Position numbers and translations under genes: made by a program. A DNA stretch of 35,330 nucleotides, from the IMG/VR virus record IMGVR_UViG_3300046059_000011, positions 1 through 35,330 of that record; one strand, 5' to 3'. Shown one piece after another: positions 7,592 to 35,260 of this stretch. The stretch is from a virus (taxonomy: Duplodnaviria > Caudoviricetes). Each line of letters begins with the position of its first letter. Position 1 is the first letter of the stretch. The notes under the pieces were generated by a model. That model was not told the origin of the DNA, searched no databases, and saw only the letters and a program-made list of their open reading frames with translations.

Positions 7592-7841
7592 TTTTTGGCT
7601 TCACTTTCATTTCGAACCAGTCGCCATCTGGCCCTTCCCCGACCACTTCCACGGGGAAGCCTGCATCTTCGAACGTTTCCTGCACTGTGCGTTCATCCGC
7701 ATCGGCCACCTTCACCACAGCACCATCCAGAACCGGATGGATCTGGAAGGGCTGTTCTGTTGGATCTGAATCGATCTGATCTACCAGCACTTCCAGCACT
7801 GCATCACGGTGTGCCAGTGCCTGTTCTTTGCCTTCGAACAC
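7584..7841 (-). CDS. hypothetical acidic protein
   Basis: GTG start with GGTGA SD; first gene downstream of leader hairpin A. Confidence 0.75.
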   Translation of the reverse strand: MFEGKEQALAHRDAVLEVLVDQIDSDPTEQPFQIHPVLDGAVVKVADADERTVQETFEDAGFPVEVVGEGPDGDWFEMKVKPKND

Positions 7842-7885
7842 GGTTTATCACCGTATCAGCACCGTTTACTGGCGGTGCCAGCCAG

Positions 7886-7932
7886 AACCGTTCCACCCGG
7901 CCACTGCTGCTGGCCGTGGTGGAAATCCGGTT
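7886..7932 (-). promoter_or_regulatory. Conserved leader hairpin copy A
   Basis: Minus strand: AACCG-GAT-TTCCACC-A-CGGCCA-GCAGCAG-TGGCCG-GGTGGAA-CGGTT. Confidence 0.75.
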
Positions 7933-7970
7933 TATAAACCGTATGTCGCTTTATCTATCCTGGTAGAAGG

Positions 7971-8249
7971 CTACTGCATCAGTTCTTCGCTGAAATCAGC
8001 CTTCCATTGATCGAGGGAACGGGGTGGTTCCCTGCCGTTTTCCTGGTAGTGGCACCGCCTGCACAGTGCCTTCAGGTTCGATTCATCCCCGTTAGTAGGA
8101 TCGCCATCGATGTGGTGAACTTCGAACTGATCCACTTCATCATGGCCACGGCCACAGCAGGGGCAGGTGTAATCTTCTTTATCTCGTTCTGCCCAGAATC
8201 GTTTTGTGTGCTTCGATCTGGCTGAATAGTGTTTCTGATCAGATCCCAT
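7971..8249 (-). CDS. HNH endonuclease
   Basis: CPCCG...FEVHHIDGDPTNGDESNLKALCRRCH; ATG at 8249. Confidence 0.9.
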   Translation of the reverse strand: MGSDQKHYSARSKHTKRFWAERDKEDYTCPCCGRGHDEVDQFEVHHIDGDPTNGDESNLKALCRRCHYQENGREPPRSLDQWKADFSEELMQ

Positions 8250-8251
8250 AG

Positions 8252-8452
8252 TTACAACCAGTCGGTGGCCTGGGTCTGATCCCGTTCTTCCCTGGCCCAG
8301 CGTTTCGCATCGCACTGATCCGAACCACACCGATACACCACCGTGTGGAACCGTTCGTTCAGATCAGGGAACTGTGTTTCCCAGGGAATGGTATCCACCT
8401 GCTGCCAGGCGTGTTCGTGATCCTCGATCTGCCGATCTAGATCATTTCCCAT
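8252..8452 (-). CDS. small hypothetical protein (HxH...CxxxxC)
   Basis: Acidic 66-aa ORF packed between neighbours. Confidence 0.65.
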   Translation of the reverse strand: MGNDLDRQIEDHEHAWQQVDTIPWETQFPDLNERFHTVVYRCGSDQCDAKRWAREERDQTQATDWL

Positions 8453-8454
8453 CC

Positions 8455-9243
8455 CTATTTCGTGTTATCGATGCGTGGGGCCAGCATCATATCGAACAGT
8501 GATGTTTTCAGCATCACTGGGAAATCCTGGCCGGAATACACCTGGATTTCATCGTACCCCTTCAGCACCTTCGAAATGTCGCTGAAGTAATCCAGGCTGA
8601 ACATCGATTCCACGGCTTCATCGGGATGTTTCGTGAATTCCACTTCCCCATCGGATTCATCGAGACTATACGTGCCTGAATCCGTATCCCCCGATGCGAC
8701 CCAGTTCACGCTGTGATCTTCCACGCTGATAGAGGTGTGATCGCTGAACATATCGTTCAGGTCCACCGCATCCTTCAGCGTGGATCCATCAATGATCCAG
8801 CCAGCAGGCAGTTCATCTTCCAGCCTCGGATGATCAGGATCCTGCCGAACAGAATCAGGATCGATCCCACCCATATCCACATCCACCTGGCCGGTGGTGA
8901 TGTTAAACGCCCAGTTATGCTTCATCCCGAATTCGAACTGCACGGGAACATCAGCATCAGCGTATCCCATCACTTCATCCAGTTTCTGGGTGTTCAGACC
9001 CATCCGAAGGCCGTCCGGCTGCACAGCGTAATACTGGATCCGTTCGTTTTCCTCGGGATCTAGATCGATGAACGTACCTGCCACGTTCGCTGGATCGATC
9101 ACCCACACACGGATCAGGCCATCGAGGAACTGGAACCTGGCTTCCGATACCAGGCAGTTCAGTGCATCCAGCACATCGTGAACCAGCCCCGCTTCCCAGA
9201 TGATCTTCATCTGGATTTCTTCATGATCGGGTGAAGATGTCAT
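8455..9243 (-). CDS. pcn: DNA polymerase sliding clamp (PCNA)
   Basis: LVSEARFQF...IDPANVA...ASGDTD...SMFSLDYF...DFPV...MLAPRI, typical of haloarchaeal PCNA; 262 aa. Confidence 0.92.
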   Translation of the reverse strand: MTSSPDHEEIQMKIIWEAGLVHDVLDALNCLVSEARFQFLDGLIRVWVIDPANVAGTFIDLDPEENERIQYYAVQPDGLRMGLNTQKLDEVMGYADADVPVQFEFGMKHNWAFNITTGQVDVDMGGIDPDSVRQDPDHPRLEDELPAGWIIDGSTLKDAVDLNDMFSDHTSISVEDHSVNWVASGDTDSGTYSLDESDGEVEFTKHPDEAVESMFSLDYFSDISKVLKGYDEIQVYSGQDFPVMLKTSLFDMMLAPRIDNTK

Positions 9244-9476
9244 AGCTGATCAGGGTCCACGCCCAGTTTTTCTAGCTGTCGTTCACGGTGGCCTTCCCAG
9301 GCCCGATCCGACAGTTCTTCAGCGTGCTGCTGTGGGCAGGCAGCCAGGTCCTGATGGCGTTCATCAGGAAGTTCTGTTCCACAGTGCCTGCACCGTTCAG
9401 GTTCTTCGGGATCCGGCTGTGGCTGGCTGCCAGGCAGATCCGAGACTGAACAGCCGGGGGGCAGGTTATTCCCCAT
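9240..9476 (-). CDS. small zinc-binding protein
   Basis: NLPPGCSVSDLPG N-terminus, CRHCG...H...C. Confidence 0.7.
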   Translation of the reverse strand: MGNNLPPGCSVSDLPGSQPQPDPEEPERCRHCGTELPDERHQDLAACPQQHAEELSDRAWEGHRERQLEKLGVDPDQL

Positions 9477-9825
9477 CGGCGTTCACCCCGATCAGTTCCG
9501 CATCACCGGCTTCCAGTCGGCCATCATCCATCGGCAAATCGATATTCAGCACCTGCCCCCAGGGGATGATCCTGGTGGGAACCAGGTGGCCAGCACCTTC
9601 AGCACGGATGGCTTCCTTCCCGATCACCACGGTGGCCCCCGCCAGTTCCATAACCTGCACCTGATCGAACGTTTCCGTTCGAACGGTTTCCTGATGAATC
9701 CCCGCCTGGGTAGTGATCGAGACTGTGGCCAGCCCCAGTTCATCGGTGGTTTCCGAACCCAGCGTGATGTAGTTCAGCCCCTCGATGTCGGAATCAGCCA
9801 GCCAGTCGTTCAGTTCTTCCGACAT
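9466..9825 (-). CDS. hypothetical protein
   Basis: Acidic beta-rich ORF, coupled. Confidence 0.75.
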   Translation of the reverse strand: MSEELNDWLADSDIEGLNYITLGSETTDELGLATVSITTQAGIHQETVRTETFDQVQVMELAGATVVIGKEAIRAEGAGHLVPTRIIPWGQVLNIDLPMDDGRLEAGDAELIGVNADGE

Positions 9826-9827
9826 CG

Positions 9828-11105
9828 TTACTGTTCCACCAGCAGCATCCGATCACCATTCTGTTCCCGAACTTCCACGGTGTATGGCCCCACCACGGAA
9901 GATCCGTGCTGTTCCTCGGAATCCCAGGTGAAGTTATTCGATGCAGTCACCTTCCGGCCATCCACGATGGCCAGCAGGTTCCCCGATCCGTGAACCCCAT
10001 CGTATTCCTCGGGGGGTGCGTTCACCGGGATCCAGTTTTCGTTCGACAGATCGGACAGTTCTGCTTTCTGCATTTCCTCGATCTGCTGGGGTGGCACGAC
10101 ATCACCCCTGGTGGTGACATCCTCGATTTCAGCATCACCGTCCAATTCCACCGTTTCAGCTGAATCGGCCTGTCGGCCTTCACTGATCCCGCCATCGGCT
10201 TCCTCGGGATCATCACCGTATTCGAAGGAATCCAGCCCCTGGTGCTGTTCTGCTATATCATCGTAATCCCGGCCTTCATCTTCATCGAGGGGTTCGGGCT
10301 GGCCGATGTCCACGATGTCGCACTTCCCAGCATCGGCGTAATCCTGGGCGTATTCGGGAACGTTTCCGTCTTTGTCTCGGGTGAAGATCGTTCGGGTTAG
10401 GTAACAGAACCCGACCACACCAGGCATATCTTCACCACAGGCGTGGGGGTGGATCAGCCACACCCGCGTTCGGCCCGGCTGAATCCTCGGTGGGGCCTTG
10501 TTACTGTGAACGCTGATCCCCTTGTTCAGCCCCAGTTCCAGCGTTTCATCGATGAAATCCCACGGTTCTTCATAGTAGGATTTCCCCACACGCATCAGCA
10601 GATCCTGGCCGTTCGCCGGGGTGATCGCACCCCAGTGTTCCCGATCTTCGAAGCCATCGTGGGCCATCCGATCCAGGTGCCTCGATAGTTCCGAGGAAGG
10701 CACCGAACCCACATCTGGATACAGGCCAGCTTCCACCTGGTTTTCTAACGCATCCCGGTGGGCTTCCTGGTGGGTTTCTGTCGAATCAGGATCACCAGGG
10801 TACAGGCACCGGATGTTTCGTTCCACTTCCACGGCAGCCAGGAAGTTCGATCCGTTCAGCGATTCGTATCCACGGGGCAGACTCTCTTTGTAGGGAATCG
10901 GGTGCAGATCACCGTTCTGATCGGTGAACACCACGAACCCAGGCAGCGTGCCACCGCTGCTGAACGCCTGGGGGTCGCATCGGATGTATGCGTTCCCGGC
11001 CTTCAGGTAGCCACACCCACGTTCTTTGTTCGGAATCGTTTCCACATCGCCATCAGCCTGGGAAAATTCATCCCAGGTGTCGGGGTTGATTTCTTTGTTC
11101 GCCAT
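9828..11105 (-). CDS. large hypothetical protein
   Basis: Acidic frame from the ATG at 11105 (MANKEINP) after GAGGT; ERGCGYLK and RVWLIHPHAC motifs; acidic linker. Confidence 0.85.
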   Translation of the reverse strand: MANKEINPDTWDEFSQADGDVETIPNKERGCGYLKAGNAYIRCDPQAFSSGGTLPGFVVFTDQNGDLHPIPYKESLPRGYESLNGSNFLAAVEVERNIRCLYPGDPDSTETHQEAHRDALENQVEAGLYPDVGSVPSSELSRHLDRMAHDGFEDREHWGAITPANGQDLLMRVGKSYYEEPWDFIDETLELGLNKGISVHSNKAPPRIQPGRTRVWLIHPHACGEDMPGVVGFCYLTRTIFTRDKDGNVPEYAQDYADAGKCDIVDIGQPEPLDEDEGRDYDDIAEQHQGLDSFEYGDDPEEADGGISEGRQADSAETVELDGDAEIEDVTTRGDVVPPQQIEEMQKAELSDLSNENWIPVNAPPEEYDGVHGSGNLLAIVDGRKVTASNNFTWDSEEQHGSSVVGPYTVEVREQNGDRMLLVEQ

Positions 11106-11194
11106 CGTTCGAACCTCGATAGTAGCCACTGCCGGGTGGCCAGCCGTGTTCCTGCATCTGTTCTGGTGCCTCGATGTCGGCAGCCACCACGCCG

Positions 11195-11239
11195 AACCGT
11201 CCCACCAGGCGGGGGGACCCACCTGGTGGATTTCCGGTT
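11195..11239 (-). promoter_or_regulatory. Conserved leader hairpin copy B
   Basis: Minus strand: AACCG-GAAA-TCCACCAGGTGGG-TCCC-CCCGCCTGGTGGG-A-CGGTT. Confidence 0.7.
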
Positions 11240-11263
11240 GGGAAAATATCGCTTCGATCTAGA

Positions 11264-11386
11264 TCAGGGGCCAGCGATCACGAACCCCCGCCTGAATTCC
11301 CGCTGGCAGAACGGGCAGTGATCCGGGTTCACGATTCGATTCACCAGCCGATCACAGCCACGGCAGTTCTGGATTTCAGGCCCCAT
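11264..11386 (-). CDS. 40-aa zinc-finger microprotein (not in ORF track)
   Basis: Translated by hand: MGPEIQNCRGCDRLVNRIVNPDHCPFCQREFRRGFVIAGP; overlaps the upstream stop codon. Confidence 0.65.
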   Translation of the reverse strand: MGPEIQNCRGCDRLVNRIVNPDHCPFCQREFRRGFVIAGP

Positions 11387-11658
11387 CATCGATCCACCGA
11401 CAGAATCGAATCTTTCTGATGGCCACAGATCTGGCAGGTTCCTGGGTCCCGCATCGGGTTCGTGGCCAGGATGAACGCTGCCACCTGCACTGCCTGATCT
11501 GGATCCAGTGAAACGCTTCCCCTACGTATCTTATCGATGTGAACGTGATCCTGCTGATCCCGTTCTGCCTCGATACGCGGGGTTTGAAAGGTGGCTTCAA
11601 CCACCGTGATCACCATTCGGGGAATGATCATCCCCGAGGGTTCGAACCAGTTCTTCAC
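11386..11658 (-). CDS. small hypothetical protein with CxxCG
   Basis: GTCQICGH; the true start is probably near 11604-11616. Confidence 0.6.
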   Translation of the reverse strand: MKNWFEPSGMIIPRMVITVVEATFQTPRIEAERDQQDHVHIDKIRRGSVSLDPDQAVQVAAFILATNPMRDPGTCQICGHQKDSILSVDR

Positions 11659-11950
11659 GGATCTGATCGAGGTAGATCACGCCATCGTTCGGGAATCCCA
11701 GAATCGCATCGCTGGCCGATTCCAGTTTTTCCCTGGATGCTTCAACCTGATCAACACCCCACGTGATTCCGGTGCTGATGCACTGATCCAGGCCAGCACC
11801 GTGATCGAACAGTTCCTGGCTGATCGTTAGGGTGATCAGCACTGTTTCGCCTTCCTCGGTGCCACCGTGTTCCTGCTGGATTCGCTGGCCCAGTTGATCC
11901 CACAGTTCCTGTTCATCCATCTGCTGGATGTGGTTCGCTATGTCGTTCAT
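11597..11950 (-). CDS. hypothetical acidic protein
   Basis: Acidic ORF, coupled. Confidence 0.75.
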   Translation of the reverse strand: MNDIANHIQQMDEQELWDQLGQRIQQEHGGTEEGETVLITLTISQELFDHGAGLDQCISTGITWGVDQVEASREKLESASDAILGFPNDGVIYLDQIREELVRTLGDDHSPNGDHGG

Positions 11951-11952
11951 CG

Positions 11953-12306
11953 TTAGAAATGGGGATCCTGCCGCTGTCTGGCGGCTTCTTTCTGGTTACA
12001 GTTATCACACGCCATCATCTTCTCGGTGCTATCCCCTCGATGCCAGCCGTTCGCACCATCTGCATCGTGGCACATATTACACACGTAGTGGACAGTGCCA
12101 CAGTCGGGGCAGGTAAGCCGGATGCAACCCATCTGGAAGCGATCTTCCAGCCGGGTCCCGAACCGATCTTCACCCCGAGGGGATTTCACGAACTGGCCGT
12201 GTTCTGCCTCGGTTAATTCGGTGCTGCACGTTTTCGGGTTCCCGTGTTCGTTCGTTTCATCCAGTTCAGCGTGGCAGTGCATCGTGATGTTCCGATCTTC
12301 AGACAT
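11953..12306 (-). CDS. multi-cysteine zinc-binding protein
   Basis: CPDCG, CNMC and CDNC motifs; ATG at 12306. Confidence 0.75.
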   Translation of the reverse strand: MSEDRNITMHCHAELDETNEHGNPKTCSTELTEAEHGQFVKSPRGEDRFGTRLEDRFQMGCIRLTCPDCGTVHYVCNMCHDADGANGWHRGDSTEKMMACDNCNQKEAARQRQDPHF

Positions 12307-12476
12307 CGTGAACACCCTGCCGCTGTTCCAGCACCAGCCGCGCATCAAAGCCGCTGTTCATCTTACTGTTCTTCCATCGTGCCACGTATTTGCCGTGGTA
12401 GCCACTTCGGTTCTGCATCGTTTCAGTGCATCCGTTACGTGGGTGCGAACGGATCCTGATGTGGCAGGATCGGCCA

Positions 12477-12533
12477 TCACCGTTCCACCAGGAACCCCCG
12501 CACACGGGGTGTTCCTCGGTGGAAATCCGATGA
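12477..12533 (-). promoter_or_regulatory. Conserved leader hairpin copy C
   Basis: Minus strand: TCATCG-GAT-TTCCACC-G-AGGAAC-A-CCCCG-TGTG-CGGGG-GTTCCT-GGTGGAA-CGGTGA. Confidence 0.75.
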
Positions 12534-12565
12534 AAAAGCGTGGGTTCGAAGCCGGGGGATCGGTT

Positions 12566-12913
12566 TCAGGCGTTCGCTGAACCTTCGAACCGTGGATCAT
12601 CTTCGGCCATGCGTTCCCAGTCAGATTTCCACTGATCGAACTTCATCCGATCAGCCCCAGTGTAATCTTCCCGGAAATCAGCCCACTGTTCAGCGGGAAC
12701 GGTGGCACGGGGCTGGCCCCGAAGGATGTCCGACATCATCCGTTCGATCTTCGAATCATTCGTGATCACGTCGCCAGTTCGAGGATCTTCGAAGCGTTCC
12801 CAGTCGTCGTGATCATTGGGTGACTGAAATTCATAGAACTGGCCGGATTTCGCATCGAACAGCACACCGGCCACTTCCACGCCATCAACTTCCTCGGTGT
12901 GGAAGGGATGCAT
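12566..12913 (-). CDS. hypothetical protein
   Basis: Acidic ORF from the ATG at 12913 (TGATG overlap, GGTGA SD). Confidence 0.75.
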   Translation of the reverse strand: MHPFHTEEVDGVEVAGVLFDAKSGQFYEFQSPNDHDDWERFEDPRTGDVITNDSKIERMMSDILRGQPRATVPAEQWADFREDYTGADRMKFDQWKSDWERMAEDDPRFEGSANA

Positions 12914-13116
12914 CAGTTCACCGTGATGATCCGGCAGCCACACGGCAGTTCCACCAGATAGGCAAAACTGCCGTTCATGTCGTTCAGGCTGGTGATGTTC
13001 CCACTGAATCCAGTGGATCGCCTGGCGACTGTTAGGCTGGGTTCACCGATTCGTTCCTCGGATCCGGGTTGATGTTCTTCCCCACAGTCGGGGCAGGTGA
13101 ACTTCACCGACATCAC
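12913..13116 (-). CDS. CPxCG zinc-finger protein
   Basis: FTCPDCG...LPCGC. Confidence 0.7.
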   Translation of the reverse strand: MMSVKFTCPDCGEEHQPGSEERIGEPSLTVARRSTGFSGNITSLNDMNGSFAYLVELPCGCRIITVN

Positions 13117-13412
13117 TGATCCACCTTCCCAGTCCCTTCCAGTTCAGTATCAGCGTGCGCATCGTGTTCACTGTGCCAGTCCAATTCGAAGGTGAACCAG
13201 CAGGTGCTGGATCCGCCACGATGCTGCACCTTCACATAGGCTTCATCTTTCGGACCCCCGAGGAACAGATCACCACCGGATCCCACAACCTGGTAGATGG
13301 GTTGATTACATTCGGGGCAGGTAGAACCCAGTTGTTCCTGAACCTTCGAAAGCAGCGCCTGAACGCTGGTGTCGAAGTTCTTCGGATCATGCGTGTGTTC
13401 TATCCGCATCAC
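13113..13412 (-). CDS. hypothetical zinc-binding protein
   Basis: CPEC...H...C; coupled. Confidence 0.7.
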   Translation of the reverse strand: MMRIEHTHDPKNFDTSVQALLSKVQEQLGSTCPECNQPIYQVVGSGGDLFLGGPKDEAYVKVQHRGGSSTCWFTFELDWHSEHDAHADTELEGTGKVDQ

Positions 13413-13792
13413 GCATCACCTTCCCTGGCTTCCTCGGGGTTCACTGGATCAGGGTTCACGTTCCGTTCGATGTCGAACTGGGGGAACACCAGCCGCGTTT
13501 CGCTGCTGCTGGTATCGATCAGATCTAGCTGCACCTGCATATCCAGATCCTCGATGTGATCCTCGGGGACGCTTTCCGGGATGTTGTGGGATCTGCCGCT
13601 TTTGCATCCATCCTGGATGCGGTCCACGGCCACGGCCACCACACGAACCAGGTTGATGTTCATCCTGATCTGTTTCCACACCACCCGAATCGATTCTGCT
13701 GCCCGATCATCTGGATCCTGATTCAGATCCTCGGTGATCCACACATCTGGGGAACCGCTTTTGTCGATCACCTTATCAGCGAACACCATCAC
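13409..13792 (-). CDS. hypothetical protein
   Basis: Acidic ORF flanked by identical 18-bp junctions. Confidence 0.7.
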   Translation of the reverse strand: MMVFADKVIDKSGSPDVWITEDLNQDPDDRAAESIRVVWKQIRMNINLVRVVAVAVDRIQDGCKSGRSHNIPESVPEDHIEDLDMQVQLDLIDTSSSETRLVFPQFDIERNVNPDPVNPEEAREGDA

Positions 13793-14076
13793 GCATCACC
13801 TTCCTGTTCGTATTTCTGGGCCACACTGTTCAGGTAGTAGGGCCTGGCACTGAATTCCATCCAGCGATCTTCCCAGCGGATTCCCTGAAGTTCGAAGCCT
13901 GCATCTTCAGCGTGTGATCGGATTTCAGCCAGGTGTTCGGCCACATGATTATCGTGGACCTTCACCACCATCTGGTGCTTTCCGTTCTGGCCATCCACTA
14001 GGTTGTATCCGGCGTGGCCTTCGATGAATTCAGCAAACTGTTCCGGGTTCGTTCGGATGTCGTATTTGTTTCCCAT
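13789..14076 (-). CDS. hypothetical protein, first gene of the accessory/early region
   Basis: Acidic frame from the ATG at 14076 (MGNKYDIR) after GAGG; the upstream extension in the ORF track is not acidic. Confidence 0.75.
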   Translation of the reverse strand: MGNKYDIRTNPEQFAEFIEGHAGYNLVDGQNGKHQMVVKVHDNHVAEHLAEIRSHAEDAGFELQGIRWEDRWMEFSARPYYLNSVAQKYEQEGDA

Positions 14077-14145
14077 CGTTCGTTCCTCGATGCAGCCGTA
14101 ACGTGGCTGCCACCGGATCCCGAACCGCCTGGCGGGATCAGCCAG

Positions 14146-14189
14146 CACCGTTCCACCCAGTCGCACACGACTGTGGTGGAATTCCGGTG
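14146..14189 (-). promoter_or_regulatory. Conserved leader hairpin copy D
   Basis: Minus strand: CACCG-GAA-TTCCACC-A-CAGTCG-TGTG-CGACTG-GGTGGAA-CGGTG. Confidence 0.75.
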
Positions 14190-14600
14190 AATCCAGTGCG
14201 TAATCACCCCTGCTGCCAGGGGCTTTCCGTAGCACTGCCGTTCGATCAAAGCGTGGGGTGCCTTCGAACAGCAGTAAGGATCTGGTGTTTCCGTTCCACC
14301 CCGAGACATCAGTTCTGGCCCATCGTTCCATCGGCCCGCCTGCACTGCCGTTCCAGGTTCTGGCCATCAATCTGCCCCGGTGGTTTCTGCTACCCAGCAG
14401 CACCGTTCAGTTAGGTGCTGTCTGTTGTGGATGCGGGTTCCCGGCACGCCAGGCCGATCTTCCGAAGCCTGCCACCTATCGAACGCTGTGCGTGATCCGG
14501 GGGCTGCACCCCGAGGCAGGCCACGAACAGCGGGGAACCAGAATTGTGTCCCCTGGTTCCCAGTGGGGGGGCTGTCATATCTGGATGTGATCCGTTTGTT

Positions 14601-14685
14601 CCTACCCATACCCACACACCCTGGGTACTTAGTTGTTAGGGATACCACCCTTACACCCTAACACCATCCTAACAATATGGTAACA
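14601..14685 (-). promoter_or_regulatory. Putative early promoter/operator region
   Basis: TACCCA-N13-TGGGTA inverted repeat, CTAAGTA TATA-like box on the minus strand, three CCTAACA-type boxes. Confidence 0.5.
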
Positions 14686-14813
14686 GGCCAGTCGGTATTC
14701 AGTAGAAGCCGCTGTGCAGCCGCTGAAGCGATTCTTCGATCAGCAGGTCCAGGCACCAACACGTGTGCGCCCAGCACAGCACGCACCGCCACGGCTGGCA
14801 GCCTGGCCGATCT

Positions 14814-14972
14814 AAAGTAAAGGGGATCCCTGGGCCAGTGTGTTTCACCTGGCCTGGTGGAACGGTGATTTCCCAGCGGATCCGATGGGGGTGGTGGGGG
14901 GTTCAGACCCGGTTCGGATCTGTGCCTCTGACATCGGATCACCGTGTGCGATGATCCTGGATCCCCTGGGCA
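14814..14972 (-). ncRNA. Candidate trans-acting antisense small RNA (~155 nt)
   Basis: CTTAAT ~27 nt upstream; 9-bp closing stem AGGGGATCC/GGATCCCCT; internal hairpins with G-U pairs that work only on the minus strand; TTTACTTT 3' end; seeds complementary to the leader hairpins. Confidence 0.6.
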
Positions 14973-15030
14973 GTTCAGCGTATGATGGCGGGGTGATTAA
15001 GGTTTAGGGAACTGGTTGGGCTGCCTTGAT

Positions 15031-24880: not shown

Positions 24881-25004
24881 CACAGGGGTTTTCTGCGAAC
24901 AGGCTGCTAACATTTCCCTAACCTATATTTGAACGGTGTGCATTTTATTGAGTTACCAGCAGCCCCACTGGTGGAACGGTGGCACGCTGGAACGGTGATC
25001 AGAT

Positions 25005-25607
25005 ATGGGAACATCTTCGAAAGAAGGGATCGGAAAGGATCCCGAAAAAGTGGATGCAGCAGCACCGACTGATGAACAAGTTCTGGAACACCTGGAACAG
25101 CAGGCTACCCCCGAGGCAGCCGCTGATGATCTAGATCAGGAACTGCCATCACGGGCTGAACTGTTCCAGGTGGTGCAGGATCAGCAGGAATCCATCGAGC
25201 GGCTAGAAGATCGGGTGTCAGATTTGGAAGCCGAAGTGGATGAAGTTTCCTTTGAAGCCACTACCATCGAGGAAGTGGCCGAACAATTCAAGAAGGGGGA
25301 AATCGGAGGGGAAGCCGGGGCTGAATTCCTTCAGGAATTCGTTTCCGTCCCCCCATCAGACAGCCTGATAAACGCCAGATCGAACCAGTTATTCTTCCGG
25401 ATCATCCGGGAACGTCGTGTGGGAAAGCCCGTGCTGGCAAAACACGTGGTGAACTGGCTGGATTTTCACGATTCAGCGAATCCCTCGGTGAAAGCGAAAC
25501 GGGTGATGGAACGGGTAGAGCAGCATCGGGATGATGATCATTACATCGGCAGCATCGAGCTAGGGAAGTACCGGGGACAGAACGTTATCTGGTTGAACCG
25601 TGACTAG
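25005..25607 (+). CDS. coiled-coil plus putative winged-helix protein, candidate replication initiator or regulator
   Basis: Only convincing plus-strand gene; GGTGA SD; acidic coiled coil followed by a more basic helical C-terminus; next to the repeat array. Function is inferred. Confidence 0.7.
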   Translation: MGTSSKEGIGKDPEKVDAAAPTDEQVLEHLEQQATPEAAADDLDQELPSRAELFQVVQDQQESIERLEDRVSDLEAEVDEVSFEATTIEEVAEQFKKGEIGGEAGAEFLQEFVSVPPSDSLINARSNQLFFRIIRERRVGKPVLAKHVVNWLDFHDSANPSVKAKRVMERVEQHRDDDHYIGSIELGKYRGQNVIWLNRD

Positions 25608-25624
25608 CCCAGCACGAACAGCAT

Positions 25625-25870
25625 CCTAACACGGAAGCGGCAATTTTCGCTGTTAGCTGAGTGTTAGGTGTTAGGCTTCAGAAAGTGCGTGGCTGGTAGC
25701 CACGCCATCTTTCTTTCTAGTTCTCTTTATAAGGTAGTTATATATAACGTATGAGCTAACACCTTCCTAACATCGATGTAACAGCGGGAAGCGTGAAATA
25801 TAGACGATCACCGTGGTTTGCCTAACACCACGCTGATTTTCACGGCTAACAGCTAACACCAATCTAACAT
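25625..25870. repeat. CTAACA box array around an AT-rich core, putative replication origin
   Basis: About ten (C/G/T)CTAACA boxes; three inverted on the left and the rest direct on the right of an AT-rich core containing the palindrome GTTATATATAAC. Confidence 0.6.
25687..25718 (+). terminator. Hairpin plus T-rich tract downstream of the plus-strand gene
   Basis: GCGTGGCT-GGT-AGCCACGC followed by CATCTTTCTTTCT. Confidence 0.45.
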
Positions 25871-34261: not shown

Positions 34262-35260
34262 TTACGCCGCGCCAGTCCGTTCCAGCCGTTCGTTCAACAC
34301 CGTGGGGTTAAATTCCTGATCTGCATCGATCACCTTCGGTCTGAACCCGTTCGTTCCCCAGATACGGTTCAGGTGATCTTCCCCGATTTCTTCCTCGCTG
34401 ATCGGTTCGTCCCCTTCAGGTAGTTCTAACAGTGGCCGGATGTCGGATCTGCACCACGGATGATTCGGGGGCAGCAGCCACGGCTGTTCCACCATATCCA
34501 CTGTCACTTCATCCAGCCGCCTGCATACAGTGCTGGTTTTCTTATCGATCACCGCATCATACGTGGCATACCGGAAGCCGTTATTCAGATACCTTCGATG
34601 GGTGGCAGTTACATACGCATCCTGCACGGAATCGTGGCTGATCAGTTCAGCCTTTGATTTCGCCGTTTGCCCGGTAATCCCGTTTTCCCGTCTGGTATCT
34701 GCATCCCCATCCAGCAGCACCTGTTCCACCCGTGTGGCCAGATCCATCTGATCATCCCGATTCGAAAACACGGGTTCGTTCTTACTGAACCCGATCTGGA
34801 TCTGTCGGGTGGCCTGATCCCCGATTTCACTGGCCAGGGAATCATCGTTTTCATACAGCAGTGCAGCATCGATGTTCCGAAGTTCGGCGTTCAAAGCCCG
34901 ATCAGCGTGATCGAGGTTCGGGGATCCGATCAGATCCGATTCATCGAACTGTCCGGGAAGCGTTCGCTGAACCCGGCTGAAGGAAGCCCGTGCAGCCCGT
35001 GCCATCGTGGTTTTATGTCGTTCTTCCAGCCAGTTCACCAGCTTCACCCGCAGTTCACGGGCTGCCAGTCGGGTGATATGTTCGTTAATCCGCCTGGCCT
35101 TCGATCTGGGGCTGGCCGTGTTCTGCTGAAGGATCTTGATCCCTTCCCCCTGAAGGAAATCCTCGATCACCGACTGAAGATCACGCACCACTTGCCTGGA
35201 ACGCTGCCTGGCACGCCGAAGATCCGTTCCGTTACTCGATGCTGGGTCCCTGGCCGACAT
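34262..35260 (-). CDS. MuF/SPP1-gp7-like minor head protein
   Basis: YDAVIDKKTSTVCRRLD...PPNHPWCRS signature. Confidence 0.88.
   Translation of the reverse strand: MSARDPASSNGTDLRRARQRSRQVVRDLQSVIEDFLQGEGIKILQQNTASPRSKARRINEHITRLAARELRVKLVNWLEERHKTTMARAARASFSRVQRTLPGQFDESDLIGSPNLDHADRALNAELRNIDAALLYENDDSLASEIGDQATRQIQIGFSKNEPVFSNRDDQMDLATRVEQVLLDGDADTRRENGITGQTAKSKAELISHDSVQDAYVTATHRRYLNNGFRYATYDAVIDKKTSTVCRRLDEVTVDMVEQPWLLPPNHPWCRSDIRPLLELPEGDEPISEEEIGEDHLNRIWGTNGFRPKVIDADQEFNPTVLNERLERTGAA

Follow-up and report, generated by a model that had tools for sequence, protein, structure and literature searches.

The 35,330-nt viral record IMGVR_UViG_3300046059_000011 of IMG/VR (called the window below, meaning the whole of this stretch of DNA) carries four dispersed hairpins on its minus strand, each of which heads a block of early genes and would form the first half of a predicted leader RNA, composed of the bulged hairpin and an H-type pseudoknot. 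This structured leader RNA, previously unlisted, is almost certainly real. Its conserved 3' arm is complementary to the seed of a candidate small RNA with its own predicted promoter, and the leader is probably targeted by this virus-encoded RNA acting in trans. The fuller scheme, in which the small RNA would act as a trans-acting antisense regulator and repress the early gene blocks by displacing a bulged copy of its seed, is the preferred reading and is judged more likely than not.

The window virus is a relative of HHTV-1 (Haloarcula hispanica tailed virus 1; Clampvirus, Madisaviridae; PMC8651126 was used for taxonomy only), and the gene following the second hairpin shares 72% identity with HHTV-1 gp52. 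Genes identified in the window include those for PCNA, resolvase, capsid and tape-measure proteins; nearly all genes lie on the minus strand, and the hairpins are situated in the early region. Infection by HHTV-1 ends in host lysis, and the life cycle of the virus has been called unexplored (PMC4810249). Five genomes were compared, namely the window virus, HHTV-1 and the IMG/VR records G001, G002 and G003 (the last a 4-kb fragment), which contain 4, 4, 3, 5 and 1 copies of the element, respectively, 17 in total.

A predicted structured leader RNA heading early gene blocks

The first-pass annotation of the window had reported four minus-strand copies of the hairpin and described their fold, and both stand. 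The copies (numbered 1-4 by ascending coordinate; Table 1) have folding z-scores of -5.3, -4.5, -5.6 and -5.2, with none of 200 shuffles equally stable, and the degenerate two-arm pattern occurs four times on the minus strand of the window and never on the plus strand, compared with a mean of 0.01 and a maximum of 1 in 200 second-order Markov genomes. The covariance-model scan proposed in that annotation bore the element out in all five genomes: a model built on 16 of the 17 copies finds exactly four matches in the window (62-78 bits; next match 16 bits) and exactly 17 of at least 48 bits in 225,518 bases (next match 19.8 bits), recovering at 48 bits the one copy excluded from it (A3). The reading of A3 as a copy without a 5' arm was rejected, since the arm is present beyond a 61-nt upper stem.

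The 3' arm reads GGUGG(A/G)ACGGU in the 17 copies (the G variant in two of them), the bulge opposite is GAA in 13 copies and GAU in four, and the upper stem between the arms ranges from 12 to 61 nt and is self-complementary in every copy. Departures of the 5' arm from its commonest form comprise 11 U-G or G-U wobble cells, one swap of U-A to C-G and five A-A mismatches, all of the latter adjoining the bulge. This mainly wobble-type drift, together with covariation in the adjoining pseudoknot, upholds the earlier placement of the element at the RNA level. The basal stem, which had been described as covarying, does so at its outermost pair, which changes on both sides; its other changes are G-U wobbles. 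All copies lie between genes, as had been claimed, with the next start codons after copies 1-4 at 7841, 11105, 12418 and 14076 (that after copy 2 was set at 11105, not 11222, because the start of HHTV-1 gp52 was followed); copy 4 does not occupy a short gap, and ends a conserved non-coding leader of about 450 nt.

Directly 3' of the hairpin, an H-type pseudoknot is found in 17 of 17 copies across the five genomes, with a stem 1 of 4-5 bp, a loop 1 of 1-3 nt, a stem 2 of 6 bp and, in 16 of 17, a loop 2 of 0 nt. The '(T)GGC' that the first-pass annotation saw after the hairpin is present and is the first strand of this pseudoknot, which had been missed; the unit is thus larger than the hairpin, comprising hairpin, pseudoknot and often a third hairpin. 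Stem 2 is fully paired (6/6) in 16 of 17 copies, compared with 1.9% of 3000 random window positions, 9.9% of which have at least five of the six pairs. This 17-copy parse is rule-fitted, and a separate, unfitted check was made on a MAFFT alignment of 16 copies (without A3): 94% of cells are paired, compared with 23-45% in slid registers, and both partners change in 12 of 23 pairs, ten of which belong to the pseudoknot (five each to stems 1 and 2), a result reached by none of 500 shuffles. Many copies, by inspection, also have a third hairpin with a CG(A/U)(U/A)AC loop shortly upstream of the start codon, and the first genes of the blocks often lack a Shine-Dalgarno (SD) motif.

Several known motifs were considered for the hairpin and rejected. 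Kink-turns have tandem G-A/A-G pairs next to a 3-nt bulge; here at most one G-A pair is possible, and U-A and C-G pairs follow the bulge. Hepatitis delta virus (HDV)-like and theta ribozymes are nested double pseudoknots, and the element is by inspection a hairpin followed by a simple H-type knot, with no Rfam match. The bulge-helix-bulge substrate of the splicing endonuclease consists of a 4-bp helix between two 3-nt bulges (PMC7714728), and the hairpin has one bulge of 3-4 nt and a helix of 6-7 bp, with no opposing 3-nt bulge. Over the whole window, the Rfam 15 covariance models (C4, riboswitches and ribozymes included) gave no match at E values up to 1, and ARAGORN gave none.

Outside the virus group, a pattern scan gave 60 motif matches, at 50 metagenome loci, nine GTDB loci and one unrelated viral contig (L002). 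The upper stem is present in 18 and the pseudoknot in seven, and the matches were rejected as chance because none combines the two. No element was found in the part of the HRTV-25 record searched (L081), or within up to 10 kb on each side of the tail gene in two viruses sharing only that gene (L082 and L083), where the gp40-like tail gene is common (61% identity) and the adjoining region is unrelated and in opposite orientation. No provirus carrying the regulator gene described below was found in GTDB, and further scans for relatives added only G003.

A candidate antisense RNA with a conserved seed

The hairpins had earlier been named as probable small-RNA targets, a suggestion strengthened by the conservation, in all five genomes, of a complementary seed with its own predicted promoter. 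The seed is the exact complement of the hairpin 3' arm, and lies in a cassette that in every genome runs from the promoter motif through 5' stems, the seed and a 3' hairpin to a T-rich end; the columns that never vary across the five small-RNA loci are concentrated in the 12-nt seed and the promoter motif. G002 and G003 have the cassette inverted together with its promoter, pointing away from the early promoter. Because promoter and seed are inverted jointly, the strand that follows the promoter is complementary to the target in every case. Opening the seed costs 0.6-5.0 kcal/mol, which is cheaper than for the opposite strand in seven of seven candidate RNAs. Exact 11-mer sites in the five records number 29, comprising 17 in hairpins, 5 in regulator-gene leaders and 7 in small-RNA loci, compared with 0.35-0.5 per genome expected by chance, and both the A to G variant of the target and a C to U variant of the seed (in G001) still pair by wobble. 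An open reading frame over the small RNA (14658-14942, HHTV-1 gp41) is doubted, given the inversion of the cassette in two genomes and the patchy resemblance between the two peptides.

The recurrence of the 11-mer could have a different cause, if GGTGGAACGGT acted as an operator on DNA, or as a site at which a viral protein binds RNA, with the small-RNA locus as a further binding site or a decoy. Such an origin would suit a nearly invariant motif that occurs in both orientations downstream of promoters, in a virus encoding a predicted winged-helix protein. It is very unlikely, given that the sequence separating the arms ranges in length from 12 to 61 nt and never loses its self-complementarity, that the variants are those tolerated by wobble pairing, and that RNA from the cassette promoter always carries the complement and never the motif itself; the CTAAC repeats upstream of promoters are also better operator candidates.

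A second seed-bearing, RNA-like locus separates the last early gene from the first late gene in HHTV-1, G002 and G001, i.e. in three of the three genomes that hold this region, which falls beyond the window; G001 has two copies, with a wobble-compatible U. In the first blocks the target has G at position 12, and in the later blocks it has U (9 and 8 copies, with copy 3 of G001 the exception), and the small-RNA base facing it is C in the first RNA and A in the second RNA of HHTV-1 and G002, with one of each in G001. This match, which concerns one base, hints at an ordered control of the blocks.

The gp32-like regulator gene shares the predicted target site

Many coupled genes in the window are preceded by GGUGA, the SD core of haloarchaea. 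In the leader of a plus-strand gene for an HHTV-1 gp32-like protein, the second of two seed-target sites overlaps an SD-like GGUGA located 6 nt before the ATG, and this arrangement (promoter class, two target sites without a 5'-arm copy, the second over GGUGA) is kept in four of four genomes. The covering of the SD motif by the seed suggests repression and a feedback loop, in which the same small RNA would block translation of the predicted winged-helix regulator. The structural model of the protein contains three helices and a beta wing, with a predicted local distance difference test (pLDDT) score of about 90. A homology search gave 24 relatives of gp32.

The regulator leader also bears on the sign of the effect. 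Were the small RNA an activator, it would open an inhibitory hairpin or block termination, turning the blocks on; as in activating switches, the default state keeps the target wholly sequestered, and the frequent lack of an SD motif in first genes would be in keeping with such control. Activation is nonetheless highly improbable, since neither the start codon nor the SD motif is hidden by the hairpin (46-90 nt away), and since in the regulator leader the SD motif is covered by the same seed.

Proposed mechanism and competing explanations

Under the preferred reading, the 3' arm of the hairpin is the likely target of the virus-encoded small RNA, by which the blocks would be switched off together. 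The 5' arm would serve as an in-cis copy of the seed, weakened by the GA(A/U) bulge and by G-U pairs, which locks the target site. The unbulged small RNA would displace this arm, probably helped by an exposed RNA end or a chaperone, and the displacement would undock the hairpin from the pseudoknot that the block may need for stability or translation initiation. In a pseudoknot-free model at standard salt, the 11-bp duplex has an energy of -5.4 to -15.6 kcal/mol when the 5' arm is absent, and whole-molecule cofolding gives -2.0 to -13.5 kcal/mol.

Several points count against this scheme. On the intact hairpin, the same duplex gives a net +1.9 to -7.3 kcal/mol, i.e. in this model invasion is only marginally favourable, with no obvious toehold, so that it may require a chaperone, a free RNA end or a transcription start within the hairpin. 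That the small RNA represses is carried over from the regulator leader. Among the genomes compared, which contain wobble variants only, none was found with an altered seed; since the seed never changes with its targets, the trans pairing shows complementarity and no compensatory covariation. The 17 copies represent about five orthologous classes and are non-independent, and kinship inflates their covariation counts. Only 13 of the 17 hairpins fold more favourably on the gene strand than on its complement. Finally, the top structural matches of the gp32-like model are winged helices with a middling best Z of 7.6, and the Foldseek rows are non-significant.

The surroundings of the hairpins bear on further explanations. 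The attenuator role envisaged by the first-pass annotation is weakened in its classical form, as a U4 run occurs within about 120 nt downstream of only one of 17 copies. Upstream, by contrast, TTT lies within 12-14 nt of 11 of the 17 copies (10 of 12 internal copies and one of five first copies; background 4-4.5%). These T runs may be TATA boxes of internal promoters, with transcription starting after the 5' arm, a free target, and a hairpin that shields read-through RNA only. Copy 1 has TTTATAAA, binding is strongly favourable once the 5' arm is removed, and in halovirus HF2 the repeats dispersed through intergenic gaps are promoters, with TATA from -26 (PMC8707807). HF2-type promoter repeats have TATA and a transcription factor B recognition element (BRE) at fixed spacing; the T runs here show no conserved BRE-like motif. 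Internal promoters are unlikely: the T runs lack the upstream CCC(T/G)AA motif common to the small-RNA and regulator promoters, and no T run is present at four of the five first copies and two internal copies. In G003, moreover, the hairpin lies directly behind a tRNA-Glu(UUC) gene (L063 3538-3615), beginning 2 nt past its discriminator base.

That tRNA junction would fit a processing or 5'-end protection role, in which the polycistronic early RNA is cut within the hairpin or just ahead of it at a U tract or tRNA end, the hairpin and pseudoknot shield the new end, and the small RNA is incidental or tunes decay. In Haloferax, tRNase Z generates downstream 5' ends (PMC4326828); the upstream U runs resemble signals bound by aCPSF1 (PMC8716108), and the GA(A/U) bulge is present in 17 of 17 copies. 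Processing as the primary role is quite unlikely, as it accounts neither for the fixed arm, nor for a separate cassette complementary to it, nor for the regulator leader's unshielded sites. The bulge-helix-bulge motif is absent, and the copies mostly have one U3-U5 tract, whereas efficient aCPSF1 binding needed two U4 tracts (PMC8716108). T-arm-like hairpin remnants were also observed upstream of some other copies.

The antisense scheme can be carried further, to an early-to-late or immunity switch operating as an RNA strand-displacement circuit, in which seed-locked pseudoknots would recruit ribosomes or block nucleases, and two small RNAs, one on the early- and one on the late-promoter side, would shut the blocks in order, because the one-base difference at the seed 5' end matches target position 12. 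This extension is tentative and rather unlikely.

Promoters, long leader and neighbouring features

Before copy 4, a multi-domain non-coding RNA of ~400 nt (HHTV-1 about 34640-35040) is found in five genomes, with 25 of 59 predicted pairs changing on both sides and a long-range helix joining its 5' end to a seed-like site. It has no Rfam match over 14190-14600, and HHTV-1 gp42, annotated over this region, is doubtful as a gene. Large phage RNAs near tRNAs (GOLLD, ROOL) offer an analogy.

Repeats of CTAAC with an 11-bp period occur upstream of the regulator promoter; in the window they are at 14640-14690 and 24900-24920, with relatives having them in the same places, and in G002 and G003 they lie between the divergent small-RNA and early promoters. 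Their placement suggests a two-way promoter switch that may be bound by the gp32-like protein. At 25620-25870, immediately beyond the gene for this predicted winged-helix protein, dense TGTTAG/CTAACA repeats surround an AT-rich stretch, which looks like a putative iteron-type replication origin. An HNH endonuclease gene is present at 7971-8330, between PCNA and copy 1, where HHTV-1 has no annotated gene. Over the whole window, GGAG/CTCC, TGAG/CTCA, GAGC/GCTC, CATG and AGCT are strongly avoided (8-16% of expected), a sequence bias that suggests possible escape from host restriction.

Table 1. Features of the leader RNAs, the candidate small RNA and the regulator gene (window coordinates, except for the second seed-bearing locus).
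Feature	Position	Strand	Remarks
Leader hairpin copy 1	7886-7932	-	Heads block running to Holliday junction resolvase
Leader hairpin copy 2	11195-11239	-	Heads block of gp52-like, PCNA and HNH genes
Leader hairpin copy 3	12477-12533	-	17-nt perfect complement to small RNA
Leader hairpin copy 4	14146-14189	-	Bulged 5' arm, variable upper stem, seed-target 3' arm
Pseudoknot after copy 1	7858-7885	-	Stem 2 GGCACC/GGUGCU
Pseudoknot after copy 2	11164-11194	-	Stem 2 with 5/6 pairs
Pseudoknot after copy 3	12452-12476	-	Stem 2 GAUCCU/AGGAUC
Pseudoknot after copy 4	14116-14145	-	Stem 1 CUGGC/GCCAG, stem 2 GAUCCC/GGGAUC
Third hairpin, ACGUAAC loop	12428-12446	-	Before ATG at 12418
Third hairpin, ACGUUAC loop	14092-14110	-	15 nt before ATG at 14076
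Long conserved structured non-coding leader before copy 4	14190-14600	-	10-nt seed-like site at 14291-14300
Predicted early promoter	14627-14690	-	TATA-like at 14627-14641; TGTTAG repeats, 11-bp period, upstream
Candidate trans-acting antisense RNA	14814-14975	-	Predicted ends; seed exposed between 5' stems and 3' hairpin, then T run
Seed CACCGUUCCACC	14856-14867	-	Invariant in 5/5 genomes
Predicted small-RNA promoter (BRE/TATA-like)	14996-15009	-	Same class as regulator-gene promoter; spacing compared with PMC8707807
Predicted regulator-gene promoter	24916-24930	+	CTAAC repeats upstream
Regulator-gene leader	24955-25004	+	Two seed-target sites (24970-24981, 24986-24997), no 5'-arm copy
HHTV-1 gp32-like protein gene	25005-25607	+	Coiled coil and predicted C-terminal winged helix
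Second seed-bearing locus	L007 48760-48960; L066 1440-1560; L086 2077-2130		Before first late gene

Significance and comparison with known systems

To our knowledge, almost nothing is known of gene timing in archaeal tailed viruses. The predicted multi-target small-RNA regulon belongs to a group that includes a cultivable virus (HHTV-1 on Haloarcula hispanica), and its four targets, its defined seed of 11 nt and the regulator gene within its loop open it to tests by reporters and compensatory mutations. The pseudoknot that recurs ahead of first genes, which often have no SD motif, provides a handle on haloarchaeal translation start or mRNA protection, and the scheme, if true, would offer a compact RNA switch for haloarchaeal genetics. 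No published description of the elements was found in a literature search, which did not extend to the original HHTV-1 genome paper, so that prior notice is possible; the virus names and contig identifiers were not found in six of the nine supplementary files of PMC10690425 that were searched.

Among known systems, C4 antisense RNA and its relatives provide one comparison. The seed-bearing cassette resembles C4 in its layout, being a separate locus with a conserved exposed seed complementary to several leaders. The CI RNA of P4 is likewise a C4-like antisense system. In phages P1 and P7, C4 is a viral small RNA that pairs with short viral-leader sites beside a DNA-binding regulator (PMC8198154), a likeness that would extend to the system proposed here. 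C4 controls one operon in a bacterial temperate phage, whereas here 3-5 dispersed early leaders and a regulator gene would be addressed in an archaeal host, the target would be locked by a bulged copy of the seed with a pseudoknot next to it, and there is no Rfam match. The compact H-type geometry of the pseudoknot resembles that of T2/T4 gene 32-type pseudoknots, differing in that a bulged antisense-target hairpin precedes it here. The RNase III sites of the T7 early region are likewise internally bulged hairpins between early genes of a polycistronic RNA, and lack the fixed 3' arm with a complementary small RNA and the downstream pseudoknot found here.

Antisense regulation in haloarchaeal tailed viruses has a precedent in halovirus phiH, whose counter-transcript is cis-encoded. 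That counter-transcript triggers processing (PMC6210493), whereas the seed proposed here, 11-12 nt long, would work in trans at several loci. The repeats of halovirus HF2 are similarly dispersed in early-region intergenic gaps and head gene blocks, but are AT-rich promoters conserved in sequence, in contrast to the RNA structure conserved here with covariation (PMC8707807). In leader architecture there is a likeness to timP/TimR and tisB/IstR1, in which a 5' leader pseudoknot needed for translation is under antisense control (PMC11228461, PMC7708055). Each of these is a single toxin locus in a bacterium, and in tisB the pseudoknot is bound by protein S1 (PMC11228461, PMC7708055); by contrast, the module described here is repeated before non-toxin blocks, and the predicted target lies beside the pseudoknot and not in it.

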